A stretch of 32,000 nucleotides of DNA from Candidatus Lokiarchaeum ossiferum (lineage in GTDB: Archaea; Asgardarchaeota; Lokiarchaeia; Sigyniarchaeales; Promethearchaeaceae). The notes under the pieces are model-generated. The model was not told the origin of the DNA. It worked only from the letters and a program-made list of their open reading frames with translations, and searched no databases. Location: the NCBI GenBank assembly GCA_025839675.1, contig CP104013.1, positions 1,380,001 through 1,412,000 of the forward strand, in the 5' to 3' direction. The position numbers and the translations under genes are program-made. The first letter of the stretch is position 1. Every line of letters starts with the position of its first letter. Positions 9,463 to 31,456 of this stretch are shown here, piece by piece.

Positions 9463-10035
9463 TCAATTAATATCTTCAAAGGCATTTTTCTTTTCTGAAA
9501 CCCAATTATCTAAAGCAACATCAGCTCTTAATAAGCGATAATTTAACGTGCCAATGTGAAGCATCAAATGCCGTAGATTATATATAAGCGAACTTAAGAT
9601 ATTGGTTCCATGCCATTCAAAGACAGAAGGTCGATATAAATCTTGAATTTCCAGTCGTGAAAAATATTTTCGAGCTTTTTTAGAACATTTTTCCAAATAT
9701 TCTTTAACTTGATGAGGTTCCAAAGGAATTTTAGGCGTGTTTCCAACACGATGAGACACATTCCGAAAATACGGTTGGAAACTCTCTCTTTCCTCTGTGG
9801 TGAAACATAAATAGAGATCCAAAAAATAGAGGGCATGGTAAGAAATGTGCCAAAAAGGAGGACCATGAGATTTCTCATTCCATATATGCTCTGGGCACTT
9901 ACAAATTACTTCTTTCATCATAGCGAGTGCAGCACCAAATTGTTCATCAATTGCTATAATCAAATCATTGGGTCGTTCTTCATTGTTCATAATGACAAAG
10001 TTGATTGCAAAAAATAAAAAAGATTTGTCAGTCAT
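9463..10035 (-). CDS. DinB-like (DinB_2) four-helix-bundle protein
   Basis: The spaced His pattern (WHISYHALYF ... LRHLMLHIGTLNYRL) resembles the DinB superfamily. The true start may be the internal Met at 9990 (MNNEERP). Confidence 0.5.
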   Translation of the reverse strand: MTDKSFLFFAINFVIMNNEERPNDLIIAIDEQFGAALAMMKEVICKCPEHIWNEKSHGPPFWHISYHALYFLDLYLCFTTEERESFQPYFRNVSHRVGNTPKIPLEPHQVKEYLEKCSKKARKYFSRLEIQDLYRPSVFEWHGTNILSSLIYNLRHLMLHIGTLNYRLLRADVALDNWVSEKKNAFEDIN

Positions 10036-21712: not shown

Positions 21713-22441
21713 TTATTTTTTCTTTTTACTCGCCAATTTACTCAGAATCATGAAAATTCGTAGCACCATTCCAACAAAATCGAAGAAAATATCAATAACA
21801 GCCATCATCCAATAACCACGTTTTATTTTCCCCGGTAAGGTTGCGGCATCAAAGACCATCACTCCAAATAAATAGCCAAACATTAGTAAATCGACGACAA
21901 TATTATTTTCTCCTTCTCCAAATATGGCAATTATAACTACTTCTAACACTCCAAATAGAATACCAAATAACAAGAAATACCAACAATAATGTTTAGAAAT
22001 CTTGTCTTTCAATAAAATGCCCAAGGCCATGGCTCCACCAGTGGCAAAAACACCAATTAATGCACTCGTTATGAAAAGACTTCGGGTTAATTCTTCACCC
22101 AAATCTTCCGCTACAAAGGATACAACAAACGACAACAAAACTCCAGATCCCAGTGCAGAAATGAAGAACAATACCATGGCAATTAAATTAACTCGTAAGA
22201 AAGTAAAAATCATGAGTAAAATCCAAACACCTACAAACACACATAATGCAATGATTATTTGAGGAATGGAAAAAGTGGTGAGATCTAAAGCAGGAGCACC
22301 GAACAATCCACTGAAATAGAGAGTAGATAATAACCAAAGAAGTGCTGCAACAAACATCGTTGGTAAAACTTTAGAATAAAATTCGTTGTCAAGAGCAGGT
22401 TGTTTACCTTTTACATGACCAAAATAATAAAAATTTCCCAT
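21713..22441 (-). CDS. Bax-inhibitor-1/YccA (TMBIM)-like membrane protein
   Basis: 242 aa, about 7 TM. The C-terminal MAVIDIFFDFVGMVLRIFMIL followed by a Lys-rich tail resembles the BI-1 family C-terminus. Confidence 0.6.
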   Translation of the reverse strand: MGNFYYFGHVKGKQPALDNEFYSKVLPTMFVAALLWLLSTLYFSGLFGAPALDLTTFSIPQIIIALCVFVGVWILLMIFTFLRVNLIAMVLFFISALGSGVLLSFVVSFVAEDLGEELTRSLFITSALIGVFATGGAMALGILLKDKISKHYCWYFLLFGILFGVLEVVIIAIFGEGENNIVVDLLMFGYLFGVMVFDAATLPGKIKRGYWMMAVIDIFFDFVGMVLRIFMILSKLASKKKK

Positions 22442-22737: not shown

Positions 22738-24108
22738 ATGTTATTTGAAAAATCTACTGTCCATTTTGAAATTACTTCTGAGTGCAACCATCGATGTATT
22801 TTTTGTTACAATCAACATCAGGTTTTTGACAATTCAAAAAATAAAGAATACATATCTTTCGATTTTTATAAGCAAATTATCGACAAGTTCGTTGAACTGA
22901 AAGTTAAGAATGTTATTATCACCGGTGGAGAACCATTTCTCCACCCTGAAATTCTTCCTTTTATTGAATATGCAAAAAAAAGGAAATTAGATATAAGTAT
23001 CAATACAAATGGATCGCTTTTAACACCTGAAATTAACCAATTTTTAGCGAACTACAAAATTCGCCTACTTGTTTCTCTCCATGGCACTAATTCTTTATTT
23101 GAAAAATTAGTTCAAGTTAAAACCTTTGATCGAGTTCGAAAAAATCTAATTGATGCACGCAAAAATTATAATCTAAATATTTCTCTACAATTTGTTCCAA
23201 TTAAAATTAATTTCCATCATATCCGAGAAGTTGCACAATTTGCAAAAGAGTTGGGTTGTTATCTACAAGTAGGAAGATACACGGATCCTTGTGGAATATC
23301 AGAAAGTACTTCATCCTTTGGATTAACGATTAAAGAATACCATTCTCTTTTCAATGAAATTCTCAAAATAAAAAGAGAATTAAAAGTACCCATTGGACTC
23401 GGAAATGGTATCCCATTTTGTATGATTGATGAAGAAAACCTCTCCAATGACATCCTGAATCTATTTAATCGCTGTGGGTGTTCTTTGGGAAAATCAATTT
23501 GGGCTTTGAGTCCAGAAGGTAACATTCGGGCTTGTCCGCAATTAAGTAATACAATTGGAAATATATTAACGGATTCTATCAAAATCCTATCTCAAAAAAT
23601 TGAAGATTTATTTAATTCATCAGTAATCACTCCCGAAATATGTCAAGATTGCGGAATTCGAATACTTTGTTGTGGAGGATGCAGAGCAAGCGGATTGGTA
23701 AGAAATGGTGCAATTAATTCATTTGATCCCCTATTTCCTCTTGATGAAGAGAGGCGAAATAAATCAATTGCATTAATTAAGCAAAAAATCAAAATTCTTG
23801 GAGAGAAAGAGAACCAATCATTATCAAGTGAATTTGATGAACAAAGCATTTTGACTGCAAATCGAGAGCTATTTCGAAGAAATTTAAATAGTTACGTTAT
23901 TTTAAGAGGATTTGGAAAAAATGGATTCATATATAAAGAGTTAAATGAATCTGCCTTGGCGATATTGAATGAATTCAAACATCCAAGTTCTGTGAAATCA
24001 GTTCTAATAAAATTAAGCAAAGATTTCTCTATTGGAATCGAAGAAATTAGAGGAGACGTTTTCAATTGCATTGAAAATTTTCTTAAAGCAGACATTTTAC
24101 AATTCTGA
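22738..24108 (+). CDS. Radical SAM enzyme with a full SPASM domain and a PqqD-like C-terminal extension (putative peptide maturase)
   Basis: CX3CX2C at C16/C20/C23 (CNHRCIFC, nt 22783-22806) and the GGEPFL SAM-binding motif. The SPASM signature is read exactly: C248-X12-G-X4-C266, then C302-X2-C305-X5-C311-X3-C315 (nt 23473-23682). Residues ~385-456 resemble PqqD/RRE. Confidence 0.9.
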   Translation: MLFEKSTVHFEITSECNHRCIFCYNQHQVFDNSKNKEYISFDFYKQIIDKFVELKVKNVIITGGEPFLHPEILPFIEYAKKRKLDISINTNGSLLTPEINQFLANYKIRLLVSLHGTNSLFEKLVQVKTFDRVRKNLIDARKNYNLNISLQFVPIKINFHHIREVAQFAKELGCYLQVGRYTDPCGISESTSSFGLTIKEYHSLFNEILKIKRELKVPIGLGNGIPFCMIDEENLSNDILNLFNRCGCSLGKSIWALSPEGNIRACPQLSNTIGNILTDSIKILSQKIEDLFNSSVITPEICQDCGIRILCCGGCRASGLVRNGAINSFDPLFPLDEERRNKSIALIKQKIKILGEKENQSLSSEFDEQSILTANRELFRRNLNSYVILRGFGKNGFIYKELNESALAILNEFKHPSSVKSVLIKLSKDFSIGIEEIRGDVFNCIENFLKADILQF

Positions 24109-24163: not shown

Positions 24164-25669
24164 TCAAATTGATTTTTCATTTTGTATCAAATAATCCCGA
24201 TTACCAAGATATGTTAAAAATTCACTCAAATCCGCTTTAACTTCACCCATTTCATTTTCTTCCAAATCAAAAGATTGTTTCAACTGAGTCAAAATATCAG
24301 CTAATGACCAGTAATTTAATTCAAGTAAAATTTTAGTAATTTCATATGCAACATCATTAATGAAAAAAGCGGTTTGTTTTTTCTCATCTAAAAAATAATA
24401 TGAATTTTCATTAACATGTTTTAATAACACATGTTTTGGAAAGGAATATGTTTGCGTTTCTATTAATTTGAAATCTATATTCTCATCAGAGTAATTAATT
24501 TCAGATTCACTATTGAATATGGTTTTGGGAATTTGTTGTTTTCCCGATATGATTAAATATACGTCCCGAATAATGTTATTAATATCGCCTCCCGACCAAA
24601 TTGAAAGAAAAAAGAATGTAGTGCTTATTACTGCGTAATATACCATTGTAAACAAAAATAACTCAAATTTTTCGTTGAAAAGATTTCCACTTCTAACTGA
24701 AATAATTGAGAGCACTGTGGGAAATAAAATAACGAGATTACACCACAAGGTACCCATTATAGCGATTTTTATTCTTTCTTTTGGAGTAAAAAGCAAAAGT
24801 GGAATTTGAACAGTCTCAACATTAATAAGAGAATTCAACTTTGAAATATAAGACCCAAATCCGCCATACATTTTGGCAGCAATTAAATGACCCCATTCAT
24901 GAAATATGGAAAGAAATAGAGATAAAAGTAAATAGGTTGAGTAATTAAAAGCATCAGAAAAAATATATGAAATTGAAATTGGATTGTTCGTAAAAAACCA
25001 AAAAAATTCCAAAAATGTTGCAGAAAGTAATAATATCCAATAGAGATTCTTAATTTTTTTTTTCCAGAAAAGTTCTGATAAATAATTGAATAGTTTTGTT
25101 CTAAAAGTCATTCGAAAATGAATTGCCAGAATAAGGTTTGGAGAAACACCTAAGATATTGAAAGCGGGCCAATCTTTGTTAATTGCGAATTCTATTAATT
25201 GATTTAAAATAAACCAGCTATTTCGAGTTATTAAGAAAAGAGATACAAATGATAAGGAAAATATCCGTTTATCAAAAGAATAAATTACATATAAACCAAT
25301 ACCAAGTAAAATTGAAAAGAAATGAAGAAGGAGGACAAGAATTCTTTTATTTTTCTTTAAAAGGATAGAATCAATATGAATAAGAATTTGAGAATAAGAT
25401 AAAATCGACCAAACTCCATAAATAGAGAATAGGATATTTTTGATTTTAAACGAATTATCCCCAATAGAAAGCACTTTATCCAAAAAGATTTGAGACATTA
25501 TGAAAAAAACTAAAAATCCAAGCAATGAAAATGCGAATATTCTCCAAAAGGGAGGTTTAATTATCTTCTTAAACTGAAAAAGACCATAAAACCACAACAT
25601 AATTGGAATTGTGAACGCAAAAGAGGAGAAAATGAAAATACGGAAAATTATATATAATCCAGAATCCAT
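24164..25669 (-). CDS. Polytopic membrane protein with an HExxH motif (M50/site-2-protease-like) and a C-terminal PqqD-like soluble domain
   Basis: 501 aa, about 10 or more hydrophobic helices. HEWGH at residues 257-261 (nt 24887-24901) sits at the end of a hydrophobic helix. The C-terminal ~90 aa are hydrophilic with a PqqD-like pattern (FFINDVAYEITKILLELNYWSLADILTQLKQSFDLEENEMGEVKADLSEFLTYLGNRDYLI). Confidence 0.6.
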   Translation of the reverse strand: MDSGLYIIFRIFIFSSFAFTIPIMLWFYGLFQFKKIIKPPFWRIFAFSLLGFLVFFIMSQIFLDKVLSIGDNSFKIKNILFSIYGVWSILSYSQILIHIDSILLKKNKRILVLLLHFFSILLGIGLYVIYSFDKRIFSLSFVSLFLITRNSWFILNQLIEFAINKDWPAFNILGVSPNLILAIHFRMTFRTKLFNYLSELFWKKKIKNLYWILLLSATFLEFFWFFTNNPISISYIFSDAFNYSTYLLLSLFLSIFHEWGHLIAAKMYGGFGSYISKLNSLINVETVQIPLLLFTPKERIKIAIMGTLWCNLVILFPTVLSIISVRSGNLFNEKFELFLFTMVYYAVISTTFFFLSIWSGGDINNIIRDVYLIISGKQQIPKTIFNSESEINYSDENIDFKLIETQTYSFPKHVLLKHVNENSYYFLDEKKQTAFFINDVAYEITKILLELNYWSLADILTQLKQSFDLEENEMGEVKADLSEFLTYLGNRDYLIQNEKSI

Positions 25670-25742
25670 TGTAGTGAAACCGATCTCCCACGTTCATAAT
25701 ATTTTGATAAAATTATAGAAAAAAAGTTATTGATTTCTTGGG

Positions 25743-25967
25743 TTATTCTCCAGAAACATCCCCAGGAATATCGAAACAATCGCAATCACAATTACAATAA
25801 CAATCATCACAATTGGCCGAATAACAATCACAATTTGCTGGGTCTTGGCAGTTGCTTGCATAACAAACTCCAGAAACTTTGCCACCTGGGTCATTCATCT
25901 GACAATCACATGAAGGATTAAATTCTGAAATTATATTACGAATTACGGGTTTTGTCCACTTCTTCAT
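25743..25967 (-). CDS. Cys/Asp-rich small peptide, candidate RiPP precursor
   Basis: 74 aa: MKKWTKPVIRNIISEFNPS then a core with 12 Cys and 10 Asp (CDC, CYC, CNCDCDC). GGAG lies about 11 nt upstream of the ATG. It sits directly upstream of, and co-oriented with, the HExxH membrane protein gene. Confidence 0.7.
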   Translation of the reverse strand: MKKWTKPVIRNIISEFNPSCDCQMNDPGGKVSGVCYASNCQDPANCDCYSANCDDCYCNCDCDCFDIPGDVSGE

Positions 25968-26130
25968 TTTTTCTTATTCTCCAAGATTTTTCGAATTAAA
26001 AATCTGTTTATACTATCAAAATAATGAATTGTCTATATAAAATTTTTCCAACATTAGTACATATTTAGGGCATTTTTATAGCTTCCAAATACATTTTTAA
26101 TTTTGAAAAATTAATAATAGTGATTTTAAA
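25968..26130. promoter_or_regulatory. Divergent promoter region between the precursor gene (minus) and the TPR gene (plus)
   Basis: 163 bp of AT-rich spacer with several TATA-like elements (CTATATAAAA at 26032-26041, TTTTTATA at 26073-26080, GTTTATAC at 26006-26013). Assigning them to either gene is a guess. Confidence 0.3.
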
Positions 26131-28392
26131 TTGTTAACTGATTTTGATGGACACAAGATTCGTTTTTCAAATGAATTAAAAAAAAAAATTGAACTGAAAT
26201 ATAAAGATATAGTGAATCATGATATCACACACCAATATCGCGAGAAATTTAATATATTATCCGATTTGACACTTCAAAATAAACGAGATGAAACCGAAAT
26301 TGCATATTTAAAGGCAAAATATGCATATATCTTGTATGAAATGCAGTATTTTGAATCCAATCCGCATTTTAAAAATAGAAAAGTAATCTTCCAAAATGAT
26401 AATATTGGTGAATTAATTTGGTATCTAACTTATTTATGTTCCAGAAAAATTACTCCAGAGGTAGACGAAATTCATGATTATTTAAAAGAGAAATTGGAAC
26501 ATTCAACAGATAACCTTCTTAATCTTGAATTTCTATATCCTCATTTCTTAATATTAAGTGATCAGCGTAAATTTTCACATGTATTTGATGAATTTTTGAA
26601 TATCAAGTCGGAAATTCTTCTTCTTTCAGAAGAATTTAGATTAACAAAAGCATTGCTCTATTCTTGTGCAATAAATATTATACCTTATATTGAAAAAGAA
26701 TCAGAAATAATCGATGAAATTTTTGTTGAAATAGAAAAAGTAATTAATTTTCAAAAAGACCTTTTTGGATATTGTGAGATTCAAAGATATTTAATTAGTA
26801 CAGAATTATTATCTCCTGAAAAAGAGGAAACTAATCGCAATCAACTCAAAAAATTACTTTCTTATTATTTTGGGATTGGAACTAAGCTCATTCAAATGAA
26901 AGTTACAATGAATTTAGGACTTCTTGATTATTATAATGAGAATTATATTTCGAGCGTGAAATATCAACAACAGGCACTTCAATTAGCCAAAGATTTAAAA
27001 AGTATTAAATTTCAATCTTATATATCCTATTTGACTGGATTATCACTAGTTAAGTTGGGGAATTATTTGGAAGCTAAGCAACATTTTTTATCAGCTCTGG
27101 AAGGAAATCGTCTTCAAGCAAATGAAATTCAAATAATTAATATTTTCGAAGCATTAGGAAATCTGTCAGAAGATATAGGTCAATTTGATAAGGCAGAAGA
27201 ATTTTATAATTCCGAAATTGAACTTGCTAAAAAACATAATGTTTTATCATCTATTGCTGCAGGGAACTTGAATTTAGCAATATTAAAGCTTTCTCAAGGA
27301 AATCTTTTAGAAGTCTTGAATTTATTACAGGAAGCAAATCATTATGCTCAAGATACATCCATGGATAATTTTATTCTTTCCATTATTAGTTATCAAGCTA
27401 AACTTTCATTTATGCAGGGAAATTATCAGAAATCATTAACATTATTAGAAAAAGGAAAAGAAAAATTAAACCAAAATTCATCTCCCGATGAATTGGCAAA
27501 TTTTTACCTTCATGAAGCAGAAATACGATTGGGAATTGGTCAAGTTAATATTTCAAAAAAAATCTTACTCTCAGTTTACAATAAACAAGTTCGGGGGGAA
27601 TCATTATCAACTTTTAGTGAAATTAATGAAATTCTTGGATCAATTCATTTCTTTGAAAATAAAACAGATGAAGCAAAAAAAATACTCATCGAAACTTATG
27701 AAAAATTGGCAGAAAAGGGATCTTTTGGAGGTATTTTCCAATCAGTTTTGGTACATCTCCTCGAATTTTGCATGATTAACAAAGATGAAAAAGAATACAA
27801 CAATTGGAAAGACATAATGATGAGCCATTTAGGTACCCATAAAATTTCATTGTTATATGGAAATCAAATAAAACTCATATTTTTAGAATTAATGCATAAA
27901 TACAATTCAAATTCCTTAGATCTCACAGCCTTAAATGATTTTGAGACCACTTTGAAAGAAAAACAATTTCTAAATCTTAAGTATAAAGTGAACTTGCTCA
28001 AAATTCGTTTTTTAGTTGACTCAGATCAAATCAAACAAGCGCTTGGTGTTATTCAACAGCTTGAATGCTCAATCGCAGACAATCCTAACTTAATCTTCGA
28101 AATTGAAATAAAACTCATTCAAGGATTAATATTAAGTCGAGATTTTGATTTTGAACAAGCACGAGAAAAAATATCTTCATTAACAAGTTTATTACAAAAA
28201 TATAATCTGAAAAGATATATTGATCGGCAACAAGAAATCACCGATTTAATTCAAAAACATTGTGAATTATTTTCAGATATATATGATTTCTCTGAGCAAA
28301 AAGACACTCAAAATAGGCAAAAAGAAAATTTGAAGGTACCATTGAATGTTATTCATCAATATTTAGATGAATCTATTAAGATCTTATCTTAG
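26131..28392 (+). CDS. Large TPR-repeat protein
   Basis: 753 aa with repeated TPR-like units (NYISSVKYQQQALQLAKDL, GNYLEAKQHFLSALE, GQFDKAEEFYNSEIELAKK, QGNLLEVLNLLQEANHYA, QGNYQKSLTLLEKGKE). I found no Walker A motif. The start is TTG at 26131, and the first in-frame ATG is at 26341. Confidence 0.7.
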   Translation: MLTDFDGHKIRFSNELKKKIELKYKDIVNHDITHQYREKFNILSDLTLQNKRDETEIAYLKAKYAYILYEMQYFESNPHFKNRKVIFQNDNIGELIWYLTYLCSRKITPEVDEIHDYLKEKLEHSTDNLLNLEFLYPHFLILSDQRKFSHVFDEFLNIKSEILLLSEEFRLTKALLYSCAINIIPYIEKESEIIDEIFVEIEKVINFQKDLFGYCEIQRYLISTELLSPEKEETNRNQLKKLLSYYFGIGTKLIQMKVTMNLGLLDYYNENYISSVKYQQQALQLAKDLKSIKFQSYISYLTGLSLVKLGNYLEAKQHFLSALEGNRLQANEIQIINIFEALGNLSEDIGQFDKAEEFYNSEIELAKKHNVLSSIAAGNLNLAILKLSQGNLLEVLNLLQEANHYAQDTSMDNFILSIISYQAKLSFMQGNYQKSLTLLEKGKEKLNQNSSPDELANFYLHEAEIRLGIGQVNISKKILLSVYNKQVRGESLSTFSEINEILGSIHFFENKTDEAKKILIETYEKLAEKGSFGGIFQSVLVHLLEFCMINKDEKEYNNWKDIMMSHLGTHKISLLYGNQIKLIFLELMHKYNSNSLDLTALNDFETTLKEKQFLNLKYKVNLLKIRFLVDSDQIKQALGVIQQLECSIADNPNLIFEIEIKLIQGLILSRDFDFEQAREKISSLTSLLQKYNLKRYIDRQQEITDLIQKHCELFSDIYDFSEQKDTQNRQKENLKVPLNVIHQYLDESIKILS

Positions 28393-28517: not shown

Positions 28518-29264
28518 TTAAGAAAAACAAAAATCAGTTAACTGAGAGATATTTTTTTGAAAGATAGCATTATCCTTCAAAATGTGTTTTCCCTGAGCAA
28601 TATTGAAAGCGATTTCGTCATAATAATTCATATAAAGAAAATTAGCAATCTTCATTTCCGATGAAAATTTTTTTTCCCAATTCGAAATTAGGCCACCCAT
28701 TGCATCTACATTTGGAATTTGGTTCCAGAAAACAGCAAATTCTTTTCCTAAAGCAAATGTTTTTTGATAAACATCTTGAACCATCTTTAAAGTACCTTTA
28801 AAATTGTTTAATTCTGCTCGTAAAATTAAAACAATTTTATTTGCGATTAAGCCATTATTAATTTGAATAAATCCCCATCCTGGACTGGAATCAATTATAC
28901 AATAATCAAATTGAGAGGATAGATTTCGTAAGTCACCTAAAAATAATTTCAATCGTTTTCCATGATAAGATTGGTCAACAGAAAAAACTTTATCATTGAG
29001 AGAAAAATTATAACCACAACAAATGACTGAAAATCCATGATTAGTTTTTGAGATTGCCTTGGATAAATCACAATTACCTTCATAATAGTCGTTAAAAGTA
29101 AATTTTGGGTTTACTTTCAAAATTTCAATAAATGAGGGCATACTAATATCAGTTTCAATTAATAATACCCGCTTATTTTTATTTGCTAAATTCGTTGCAA
29201 GGTTAAGTGCTATTAGAGATTTACCAGTTCCCCCGCGAAATGAATGTACTGTTATTCTTTTCAT
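28518..29264 (-). CDS. ParA/MinD-family P-loop ATPase
   Basis: Deviant Walker A HSFRGGTGKS (nt 29217-29243), ETD switch-like LLIETD, and Walker B CIIDSSPG. 248 aa. Confidence 0.8.
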   Translation of the reverse strand: MKRITVHSFRGGTGKSLIALNLATNLANKNKRVLLIETDISMPSFIEILKVNPKFTFNDYYEGNCDLSKAISKTNHGFSVICCGYNFSLNDKVFSVDQSYHGKRLKLFLGDLRNLSSQFDYCIIDSSPGWGFIQINNGLIANKIVLILRAELNNFKGTLKMVQDVYQKTFALGKEFAVFWNQIPNVDAMGGLISNWEKKFSSEMKIANFLYMNYYDEIAFNIAQGKHILKDNAIFQKNISQLTDFCFS

Positions 29265-29405
29265 AAATTTATCACCAAAGAATATTTGATGCGGATTATT
29301 TTTTTAATGATTATTTAAATGGACACAATTGTATGAAGTTGGAGTCAAAATCGGGTTCATTTATTGAGAAATTAATTTATACCTTTATATTCTTATGGGT
29401 ATTGA

Positions 29406-30005
29406 TTATGGAATCCAATATATTTTCTCCCCCTTATAATCCATACTCTCAATATATCCATCAGCTATAAGAAGGTCTAAACCAGCGAGAATAATATTTT
29501 CTTCCCTCTTTGTATTTTCGATTATGTTCTTTAGGGTTATTTTACCAGAATTATCATCTAATTCGACTAGTATCATTGCAATTTCTCGACAGAAAGGATT
29601 TAAATCCGTTAAAATTTCATAAAGATTTTCCCGTAAATTCTTGCGCTCTTTGTCAATTTCATTTAGAAAATTAGAAATGGAAGTATCTACAAATTGCTGT
29701 ATTGTTTTAATGGAATATTTTTTTCGAAATGAAGGAGAATTGATATTTTTCGTTATAGAATTTGCGAGATCCTTCTCTAAATAAATATTATACACATCAT
29801 AGAGAGTATTGGTTTTGCGTATTGCATCGCGAATAACGTTAGTATTTTGAATATTTTGGACGCTTGTACTATTTTTCACAGCAATTTTTTCCTTCAAAGA
29901 TTGAAAGTGCACAAGATCGTCATCCTTCAAATCAATTCGAACAATAATTTTCGAATTTGAGAGGTCTTTATCCACAGGTTTTTTGGCCAATTTTTTCCCT
30001 TCCAT
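29406..30005 (-). CDS. Hypothetical protein, possibly DNA-binding (RHH-like N-terminus, wHTH-like C-terminus)
   Basis: KIIVRIDLKDDDLVHFQSLKEKI ... NVIRDAIRK has a strand-helix-helix pattern. The C-terminal ILAGLDLLIADGYIESMDYKGEKIYWIP resembles a recognition helix plus wing. This is pattern only; I recognise no family. Confidence 0.4.
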   Translation of the reverse strand: MEGKKLAKKPVDKDLSNSKIIVRIDLKDDDLVHFQSLKEKIAVKNSTSVQNIQNTNVIRDAIRKTNTLYDVYNIYLEKDLANSITKNINSPSFRKKYSIKTIQQFVDTSISNFLNEIDKERKNLRENLYEILTDLNPFCREIAMILVELDDNSGKITLKNIIENTKREENIILAGLDLLIADGYIESMDYKGEKIYWIP

Positions 30006-30172: not shown

Positions 30173-31456
30173 TTATTCATATCGAATTGAATCAATTGGA
30201 GATAATCTAGCAGCTTTACGTGCTGGGATAAATCCAAAGAAAACTGAAATACAAAGTCCAAATAAAACAGTTTTAATAATCATTAGAAATGAAAAGATAG
30301 GAGAAAATTGGATATCAAGGGGAGAACTATTATTTTCATTACCACTAAGCTGCATATATGCAGAATCCCTATGATTGATGAAATTCGTTGCACCAAATGC
30401 GAATAAAATTCCAAGGGCTACACCCAAGATTGAACCTAAAAACCCAATTAATAAAGATTCAAATAGAAAAATACCAAAAATCTCTCGATCTTTAGTACCG
30501 AGAGCTTTTAAAATCCCAATTTCATGAGTTCTCTCCAGAACGGAAATCGTCATAACATTCATAATTCCAATTCCAGCAACAAGTAATGAGATTCCCCCAA
30601 TCGCAGCAAGAAACAAAGTAATTATTGTTGTTGCAGTATCTATAGTTCCACGCATTTCTTGTAAAGTTATAATGCCGACGTTTTCGCCAAATATTTCTTT
30701 GATTTCCAATGAAACAGTAGAAATAGTTTCATTGGAATCATCAGTGAGCTTAACTAAAATCATAGAACATTCATCAGTTTTGAAAAGTTTTTCAGCAAAA
30801 TGAATGTCCATATAAATTGCATCATCAGAGGGAGCACCAAAAGTATCATATGTTCCGATAAATTCTAAGACTCCACTAATTTGTTGTGAAGAACTATAAA
30901 TTTTTGTTGAGGAAGATGTCCGTTCAGCCCATTGTAACGTCAAATTATCACCAATATTTCCGATCGAACTTTCATTCCCCCAAGGAAAAAAGAAATCATG
31001 ACCCAAAATAATAGAATCATTCAGCGTTTCAAGTCCAGACCCATTTCTGAATTTAAAAGTATTAGGATAAAGCTGAGAATATTTTTCAAAATCAATCCCA
31101 TATACAACCGTCAACACATCTGTGCCATTTAAAGACAAATAAACCTGTTTTTGAAGCACCGCCACAGCAGTTTCTACTAAAGTAAGATTTTCAACCAATG
31201 AAGAATCGTTGATGTATAGGGAGACTTCAAAATCGGTTCGAGACATAATCGAAGTTTGCTTTGCTATAGTTATGGTATCTGTGGAAAATCCTTTATCAAA
31301 TTCATCATTTATGGTTTGTTCCAAACCTTCACCTAAAGCGAGTAAGGAAATAATAGCCGCAATACCAACCACAACACCTATAGTAGTAAACATAGCTCTT
31401 TTTTTACGGCTAATTAATGTAATTCCAGAATATCCAAGGATATCACGAATTTTCAT
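30173..31456 (-). CDS. ABC transporter permease, FtsX/MacB-type
   Basis: An N-terminal TM helix, a ~230-aa extracytoplasmic domain, then three C-terminal TM helices with EIGILKALGTKDREIFGIFLFESLLIGFLGSILGVALG (FtsX-like signature). The start overlaps the upstream ATPase stop by 4 nt (ATGA). Confidence 0.85.
   Translation of the reverse strand: MKIRDILGYSGITLISRKKRAMFTTIGVVVGIAAIISLLALGEGLEQTINDEFDKGFSTDTITIAKQTSIMSRTDFEVSLYINDSSLVENLTLVETAVAVLQKQVYLSLNGTDVLTVVYGIDFEKYSQLYPNTFKFRNGSGLETLNDSIILGHDFFFPWGNESSIGNIGDNLTLQWAERTSSSTKIYSSSQQISGVLEFIGTYDTFGAPSDDAIYMDIHFAEKLFKTDECSMILVKLTDDSNETISTVSLEIKEIFGENVGIITLQEMRGTIDTATTIITLFLAAIGGISLLVAGIGIMNVMTISVLERTHEIGILKALGTKDREIFGIFLFESLLIGFLGSILGVALGILFAFGATNFINHRDSAYMQLSGNENNSSPLDIQFSPIFSFLMIIKTVLFGLCISVFFGFIPARKAARLSPIDSIRYE

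Follow-up and report, generated by a model that had tools for sequence, protein, structure and literature searches.

What does a membrane protein that combines a zinc-protease motif with a peptide-binding domain do next to the gene of a small, cysteine-rich peptide? We addressed this question for a 501-residue protein encoded in a 32,000-nucleotide (nt) stretch of DNA from Candidatus Lokiarchaeum ossiferum (contig CP104013.1, positions 1,380,001 to 1,412,000; here called the window), a species placed in the Promethearchaeota (Asgard archaea). The gene lies directly downstream of a gene for a putative precursor peptide and converges with the gene of a radical S-adenosylmethionine (rSAM) maturase. 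On the basis of sequence comparison and structure prediction, we propose that the protein is an M50 (site-2-protease)-like intramembrane zinc metalloprotease guided by a recognition element (RRE) for ribosomally synthesized and posttranslationally modified peptides (RiPPs), and that it most likely processes the rSAM-modified precursor encoded upstream; we give this reading a probability of roughly 0.6. A zinc-protease motif like that of the site-2 proteases, joined to a leader-binding domain, would most likely serve to trim the modified precursor at the membrane. A preliminary description of the locus had named the protein a candidate leader peptidase or export gate. The open reading frame (ORF) exists as described there, and every coordinate given in that description is correct (Table 1).

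The protein has two full-length orthologues, a metagenomic protein (P0002; 61% identity) and a hypothetical protein of Ca. Lokiarchaeum ossiferum (P0003; 47% identity). A word-indexed search of 5.8 billion proteins returned only these two and the window's own protein, a profile search of 1.84 billion representatives clustered at 50% identity returned the family and three fragments (P0004 to P0006), and no more members turned up when GTDB species genomes and JGI metagenomes were scanned with a pattern. Because the word, profile, and pattern searches add only three fragments, the HExxH-RRE family is a small, lineage-restricted orphan of Lokiarchaeum-type Asgard sequences. Public gene calls start the window protein (P0001) and P0002 at Met24, giving products of 478 and 475 amino acids (aa), respectively, and these shortened calls drop the conserved first transmembrane (TM) helix. 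In the metagenomic locus L002, the called start is preceded at a distance of 69 nt by an in-frame ATG; the peptide encoded from there, MNYALLMLVRIFIYSSLVFTIPLM, matches residues 1 to 24 of the window protein, and the N-terminus of P0003 likewise reads MDS. For these reasons, we take the long start, which yields 501 aa, to be the true one.

Structural modeling firmly supports the prediction that the C-terminus is a PqqD/RRE-type domain. The Pfam PqqD model (PF05402) matched aa 427 to 492 with an E value of 0.002 and 18.9 bits, below the gathering cutoff of 23.4; it matched two of the three orthologues, and the NCBIfam PqqD model gave an E value of 0.023. Foldseek provided a test independent of the Pfam match. 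An AlphaFold2 (AF2) model of aa 395 to 501 (the C-terminal 107 residues), built from a four-sequence alignment, reached a mean predicted local distance difference test score (pLDDT) of 88 and a predicted template modeling score of 0.80. It comprises three strands (model residues 20 to 26, 29 to 34, and 39 to 43) followed by three helices (45 to 56, 62 to 73, and 77 to 96), with a short extra strand at either end. When the model was compared with the PDB, the first 16 matches were all RiPP leader-binding domains. The best was TbiB1 with bound leader (5v1v; E value of 1.6e-4, target-normalized TM-score of 0.73), and other top matches were PqqD (5sxy), LynD (4v1t), TruD, TfuB1 (6jx3), TigE, and TbtB. 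ThcOx, CteB, and McbB appeared further down the list, amid unrelated folds, and a PDB sequence search with the RRE profile returned nothing relevant. The PqqD-like layout that the preliminary description had placed at nt 24182 to 24445 (aa 409 to 496) coincides with the modeled domain.

The suggestion that two enzymes of the locus each carry their own leader-binding module was also borne out, because an RRE is modeled here and a PqqD-like domain is found in the maturase tail. The latter lies at about nt 23839 to 24105, after the SPASM domain, and was matched by Pfam in all three orthologue tails (best E value, 1.2e-6); NCBI names the L. ossiferum maturase orthologue (P0128) a PqqD family chaperone. 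Aligned with each other by hhalign, the two RREs of the locus gave a probability of 1.4% and were not detectably similar; they are not recent duplicates. In RRE-bearing thioether-forming maturases such as CteB, the RRE is N-terminal, unlike the C-terminal RRE of this maturase.

The membrane part contains a single HExxH motif, HEWGH, at aa 257 to 261, at the end of the predicted TM7. All four homologues that span the motif have it unchanged: the window protein, P0002, P0003, and the fragment P0004. The motif is embedded in the extended form HExGHxxxAxxxG, present as FHEWGHLIAAKMYGG, and the AAKxxGG context that follows it is conserved. Pfam M50 (PF02163) was the only peptidase family matched. 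In all three orthologues, aa 251 to 313 aligned with profile positions 7 to 91; the E value was 0.066 (13.0 bits) for the window protein and 6e-4 for the best orthologue. No M50 model of NCBIfam matched the 501-aa protein. We then aligned the family with 82 proteins that carry a precomputed PF02163 annotation and were retrieved with the MjS2P sequence of PDB entry 3b4r. The hhalign probability was 82% (E value of 1e-5, 61 columns), with aa 241 to 308 placed on the HExxH...AGP helix region. The score of the core at aa 230 to 385 was 41.7; 30 column shuffles reached no more than 19.3, and the reversed query scored 18.1.

The immediate surroundings of the motif point the same way. The decapeptide HEWGH(L/F)IAAK was back-translated and scanned in the genomes of 185,579 species, where it occurred at at least 119 loci; 117 of the 119 listed ORFs are Pfam M50 proteins at E values of ≤1e-5, mostly of the RseP type with PDZ domains. 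From the information content of the pattern, we estimate a chance expectation of about 0.05 matches. Loci of Ekhidna and Solobacterium among those listed have exactly HEWGHLIAAK, as in the window protein. Among the listed matches, HEWGH(F/L)IAAK appears as a sharply conserved signature of RseP-type M50 proteins in Acidobacteriota, Patescibacteria, Cytophagales, and other groups; the Lokiarchaeal protein shares the decapeptide exactly, and the remainder of it is not alignable to those M50 proteins. An hhalign probability of 96% against an RseP-type set was discounted because that set had been selected by the query's own decapeptide, and a mixed alignment of the family with true M50 proteins was dropped as AF2 input because it is circular.

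The M50-like core runs from TM7 with HExxH through a cytoplasmic or re-entrant loop to TM8 with MGTLWxN, TM9, the GGD turn, and an amphipathic helix. hhalign placed RIKIAIMGTLWCN on ElxIAiAGPlvN in the same register with or without the HExxH columns, at a background score when alone, and three MAFFT modes rendered the whole core collinear with M50, including SGGD on PMDGG. The three orthologues share G360, G361, D362, N364, N365, R368, and D369 of the motif GGD(I/M)NNIIRD without exception. The spacing from H257 to D362 is 105 residues, compared with about 94 in MjS2P. The preliminary description had singled out SGGDINN (aa 359 to 365, nt 24575 to 24595) as the nearest candidate for the site of a third zinc ligand; topology and MAFFT collinearity make this proposal plausible, whereas hhalign gives it no profile support, and GGD and DGG stayed unpaired when the alignment was extended greedily (mact 0.05). 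The third ligand could be D362 or D369, both invariant in the three orthologues, or E221, invariant in all four covering sequences including P0004.

The topology was predicted by the positive-inside rule. It gave nine TM helices with the N-terminus outside and the C-terminus inside, consistently in the three orthologues, and for the window protein 19 Lys and Arg residues fall in predicted inside loops and 7 outside. Hydrophobic helices extend to about aa 358, and one more helix then reaches to aa 375, in line with the limit of about 375 estimated earlier. The prediction puts both HExxH and GGD at cytoplasmic helix ends, those of TM7 and TM9, respectively. In M50 proteins, as in the structures of MjS2P and RseP, HExxH and LDG occupy the same relative positions at the cytoplasmic face. 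TM6 may correspond to TM1 of M50 and minimal site-2 proteases, which leaves the rest of the N-terminal extension unexplained. The N-terminal 228 residues have no Pfam or NCBIfam match. They contain a 45-residue cytoplasmic loop rich in Lys and Arg and two conserved motifs, WF(I/V)LNQLxE and PNLxLxIxFRMTFxTKxLNxLSE, the latter in the cytoplasmic loop. This helical extension is the sole basis of the export-gate idea, for which we found no evidence either way.

A number of results weigh against the M50 assignment and must be set beside those above. All three orthologues stay below the Pfam M50 gathering score of 27.2. The canonical NxxPxxxLDG motif is absent, as had been remarked in the preliminary description, and aa 325 to 385 alone showed no similarity to M50 by hhalign. 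Masking of the five HExxH columns lowered the hhalign score to 16.6, which is background; the best local match then remained the AGP-helix register, at that background score. An MjS2P-type hidden Markov model (HMM) gave 6 to 9 bits only on the HExxH protein. PDB sequence searches with the single protein and with the family profile returned no M50 and nothing relevant, and among the 1.84 billion representatives the profile of the HExxH protein reached nothing outside the family at E values of ≤0.001, and hence no bridge to M50. A full-length AF2 model from a three-sequence alignment had a pLDDT of 46.7, which makes its membrane part unusable, and Foldseek with this model returned RRE matches and G-protein-coupled-receptor or transporter noise only. 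With three full-length sequences and three fragments only, moreover, conservation is weakly informative. The claim of an M50-like HExxH region stands in part: it has the Pfam matches in three of three orthologues, the hhalign result, and the decapeptide on its side, whereas every family score is subthreshold. In our judgment, the membrane part is probably, at about two chances in three, a core of the M50 type that has diverged very far, one that on present evidence should not be filed as a member of the family.

The gene order and the precursor itself bear on the likely substrate. The precursor stop codon lies 73 bp from the HExxH gene on the same strand, as the preliminary description had it, and in three loci the HExxH gene alone is directly downstream of the precursor gene and co-oriented with it. 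Besides the 74-aa precursor of the window, precursors of 49 aa and 80 aa are encoded at positions 9771 to 9920 of the L. ossiferum locus L001 and 9612 to 9854 of L002, respectively. All three begin with a near-identical 17-residue leader, MKKW(T/S)KP(V/K)I(R/T)NI(I/V)(S/T)EFN, and a PGG is also kept. Their cores are rich in Cys and Asp (CDC or NCDC repeats) and variable in sequence, and their C-terminal ends are alike, with the form CF(D)xxxGE (CFDIPGDVSGE or CFVGE). Because the leader is near-identical while the cores and their lengths differ, these sequences suggest that the core diversifies rapidly under a fixed recognition sequence. The precursor is presumed to be both the ligand of the RRE and the substrate of the protease. 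Precursor, rSAM enzyme, M50-like membrane protein, and ABC (ATP-binding cassette) transporter all occur in one conserved neighborhood, found in the window, in L001, and in the metagenomic contig L002/L003; the maturase gene is present in the window and L001 and is cut by the contig end in L002/L003.

What the analysis shows is the gene, its motifs and their conservation, the RRE fold, the predicted topology, and the neighborhood; from these, M50 homology, zinc binding, the third ligand, the substrate, the cleavage site, and export are inferred. We propose the following order of events. The cytoplasmic rSAM/SPASM enzyme, using its own RRE, would cross-link the Cys/Asp-rich core. The leader, MKKWTKPVIRNIISEFN, would then add itself as an extra strand to the RRE at the C-terminus of the membrane protein, and docking would hold the leader-core junction at HEWGH in TM7, at the inner leaflet, facing the GGD...RD segment of TM9. 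There, E258 would activate a water molecule on a zinc ion held by H257, H261, and probably D362. Export of the released core would follow, through the neighboring MacB-type ABC system or by way of the helices of the protein itself. It is possible, and in our estimate improbable, that one polypeptide unites leader recognition by the RRE, M50-like cleavage, and translocation through the six-helix N-terminal domain; if it did, it would be an ATP-independent counterpart of the peptidase-containing ABC transporters, so far confined to Lokiarchaeum-type Asgard archaea.

Other readings of the protein distribute the same evidence differently. It could be a protease other than a leader peptidase, one that trims the C-terminal tail of the precursor or degrades the peptide in self-protection or turnover, with the RRE serving for recruitment only. 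TglG and TmoG are membrane-bound M50 proteins that cleave the C-termini of scaffold peptides (PMC10885120), and the common CF(D)xxxGE end of the precursors would suit such trimming. We regard this as unlikely. RREs characteristically bind N-terminal leaders, as they do in the top structural matches, the strongly conserved part of the precursor is its N-terminal 17 residues, and the syntenic block contains no other leader peptidase candidate. We are similarly doubtful that the protein lacks protease activity altogether and acts as a membrane-anchored RRE scaffold, an exporter, or an immunity protein, with an HExxH that is convergent or forms a noncatalytic metal site; such a protein would either keep the precursor (and perhaps the maturase) at the membrane or move the product out. 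The likeness to M50 comes almost wholly from one helix, the second catalytic motif is noncanonical, some 230 residues form an extra conserved polytopic domain without known function, and EpeP, a membrane M50 protein of Bacillus subtilis, is itself thought to aid export (PMC10885120, PMC7026026). Set against this, the full HExxH including its Glu is invariant in a conserved AAKxxGG context, the extended decapeptide is specific to true M50 proteins (117 of 119 listed), and a MacB-type ABC exporter is already encoded nearby.

Catalysis could also belong to a membrane metalloprotease of an undescribed HExxH lineage that has converged with M50 and takes its third ligand from elsewhere, for example E221 or D369. 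In favor of such a lineage, exhaustive HMM searches reached no M50 protein, profiles fail to align the second half of the core, and six extra helices precede the domain. What makes this quite improbable to us is that the HExxH helix, the loop, the G-x-x-x-x-N helix, and the Asp-ended helix at the same face are collinear with M50, and that M50 is the only membrane-peptidase match of Pfam. In single-sequence comparisons, RseP and SpoIVFB scored 24 to 25 versus 16.8, a background value, for the M48 protease HtpX, a small difference.

Precedents exist for each half of an RRE-guided, M50-like protease. In the epipeptide operon of B. subtilis (epeXEPAB, also yydFGHIJ), the membrane M50 protein EpeP (YydH) is encoded with a precursor, an rSAM enzyme, and an ABC transporter; its presumed role is to cleave the modified peptide and possibly to assist in its export (PMC10885120, PMC7026026). 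Compared by description, EpeP and the Lokiarchaeal protein are alike in being membrane-embedded M50-type or M50-like proteins encoded with a small precursor, an rSAM enzyme, and an ABC transporter. They differ in that EpeP is bacterial and PMC10885120 and PMC7026026 mention no RRE fusion for it, and in that the rSAM enzyme there is an epimerase, whereas here it is a SPASM enzyme with a Cys-rich substrate. Relative to EpeP, the Lokiarchaeal protein has six extra N-terminal helices, no canonical LDG, and a score below the Pfam M50 threshold. The site-2 proteases MjS2P (3B4R), SpoIVFB (8VJL), and RseP (7W6X) have the same HExGHxxxAxxxG in a TM helix near the cytoplasmic face, followed, as in the Lokiarchaeal protein, first by a loop and a G..N helix and then by a helix whose terminal turn contains Asp; the RseP of Kangiella likewise has HEWGH. 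In these proteases, however, the accessory domains are CBS or PDZ rather than RRE, NxxPxxxLDG stands in place of GGD(I/M)NNIIRD, the similarity is subthreshold, and the substrates known for them are regulators anchored in the membrane rather than soluble RiPP precursors.

Lasso B proteins, which consist of an RRE (B1) and a peptidase (B2), likewise join a PqqD-like RRE and a leader peptidase in one polypeptide, and in them leader binding positions the substrate for, or activates, cleavage (PMC10885120). In structure, the Lokiarchaeal RRE comes nearest to those of the lasso pathways, TbiB1 and TfuB1. The lasso peptidase, though, is a soluble transglutaminase-like cysteine protease with an N-terminal RRE, whereas the protein described here is an integral-membrane HExxH protein with a C-terminal RRE. 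TglG and TmoG of the pearlin pathway are likewise of M50 type, act in a RiPP-like pathway, and have a peptide scaffold as substrate; they differ in being carboxypeptidases that release a C-terminal modified amino acid, in belonging to another cluster type, and in having no RRE mentioned (PMC10885120). In light of these comparisons, the protein would unite a membrane metalloprotease resembling EpeP with RRE guidance of the kind seen in lasso B proteins, within an rSAM peptide cluster of an Asgard archaeon. The combination of an RRE with an M50-like membrane domain appears undescribed: PF05402 is present in none of the 120 M50 proteins listed, M50 is not mentioned in the RRE-Finder paper, and we found no literature that pairs PqqD with a site-2 protease, a result from limited sources that does not prove novelty. 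Nor did we find literature on biosynthetic gene clusters of Lokiarchaeum ossiferum.

How the intramembrane M50 proteins of RiPP pathways (EpeP and TglG/TmoG) choose soluble substrates is left unexplained in a review (PMC10885120). A natural RRE fusion would supply an answer, namely docking at the cytoplasmic face, and would extend the logic of the RRE-leader peptidase fusion from lasso cysteine proteases to a membrane-embedded metalloprotease. It would also define the processing step of an uncharacterized rSAM peptide pathway of Asgard archaea, of which one, Ca. Lokiarchaeum ossiferum, is in culture. If the M50 assignment is true, GGDxNNxxRD takes the place of LDG, and the known sequence space of site-2 proteases becomes wider.

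Table 1. Features of the HExxH-RRE protein gene and its neighborhood, in window coordinates unless another locus is named
Feature	Position (nt)	Strand	Basis or remark
Gene of 501-aa polytopic membrane protein (HExxH core and C-terminal RRE)	24164..25669	-	ORF; orthologues with 61% and 47% identity
N-terminal extension, aa 1-228, six predicted TM helices	24986..25669	-	Hydropathy, AF2 helices, positive-inside counts
M50-like core, aa 236-375	24545..24964	-	Pfam (subthreshold), hhalign, controls
HEWGH (H257, E258, H261), putative zinc ligands and catalytic base	24887..24901	-	Cytoplasmic end of TM7
MGTLWCN, aa 305-311, collinear with AGPxxN of the M50 third helix	24737..24757	-	hhalign
GGDINNIIRD, aa 360-369, in place of canonical LDG	24563..24592	-	Invariance, MAFFT, topology
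Predicted cytoplasmic RRE/PqqD-like winged helix, aa 407-498	24176..24451	-	Pfam, AF2, Foldseek
Putative precursor peptide, 74 aa, leader MKKWTKPVIRNIISEFN and Cys/Asp-rich core	25743..25967	-	ORF; orthologues in L001 and L002
T7 run between precursor stop and peptidase gene start	25719..25725	-	Sequence; T11 in L002 (~9873-9883)
rSAM/SPASM maturase, convergent with peptidase gene	22738..24108	+	Pfam, NCBIfam
242-aa polytopic membrane protein, divergent, beside maturase	21713-22441	-	No Pfam match; L001 13112-13840
TPR (tetratricopeptide repeat) protein, 753 aa, divergent from precursor	26131-28392	+	Syntenic in all loci
ParA/MinD-like ATPase and 199-aa protein without database match	28518-30005	-	Syntenic in three loci
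MacB/FtsX-type ABC permease, candidate exporter or immunity pump	30173..31456	-	Pfam; synteny in all loci
ABC ATPase	31453 onward (to 32000)	-	159-aa ORF; upstream part apparently past window end

The maturase scored far below cutoff against PapB, SCIFF, QhpD, and all other NCBIfam maturase models. Its next relatives, at about 30% identity and including ones in a Bacteroidales genome (Cryptobacteroides) and in metagenome contigs, have no neighboring gene for an M50-like or RRE-bearing membrane protein and so offer no intermediate architecture. In L002/L003, the contig ends before the gene of the 242-aa membrane protein, which may serve the cluster in immunity or export. Some 65 nt before the ATG of the precursor stands a conserved AAAAATTTT(T)ATATA box (window, ~26033 to 26047 on the minus strand; L002, ~9530 to 9545), and GGAG stands just before the ATG. 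Judged by sequence, this box and the T-run behind the precursor may act as an archaeal promoter and a leaky oligo-T terminator, and the precursor transcript would then be in excess over that of the peptidase. The 753-aa TPR protein has a weak NCBIfam match (E value of 1.8e-5, 23 bits versus a cutoff of 1125) to HaaT, a TPR protein of cyclophane RiPP biosynthesis. In L002, a MarR/winged helix-turn-helix regulator gene and a 55-aa ORF are additionally present between the ParA and TPR genes.

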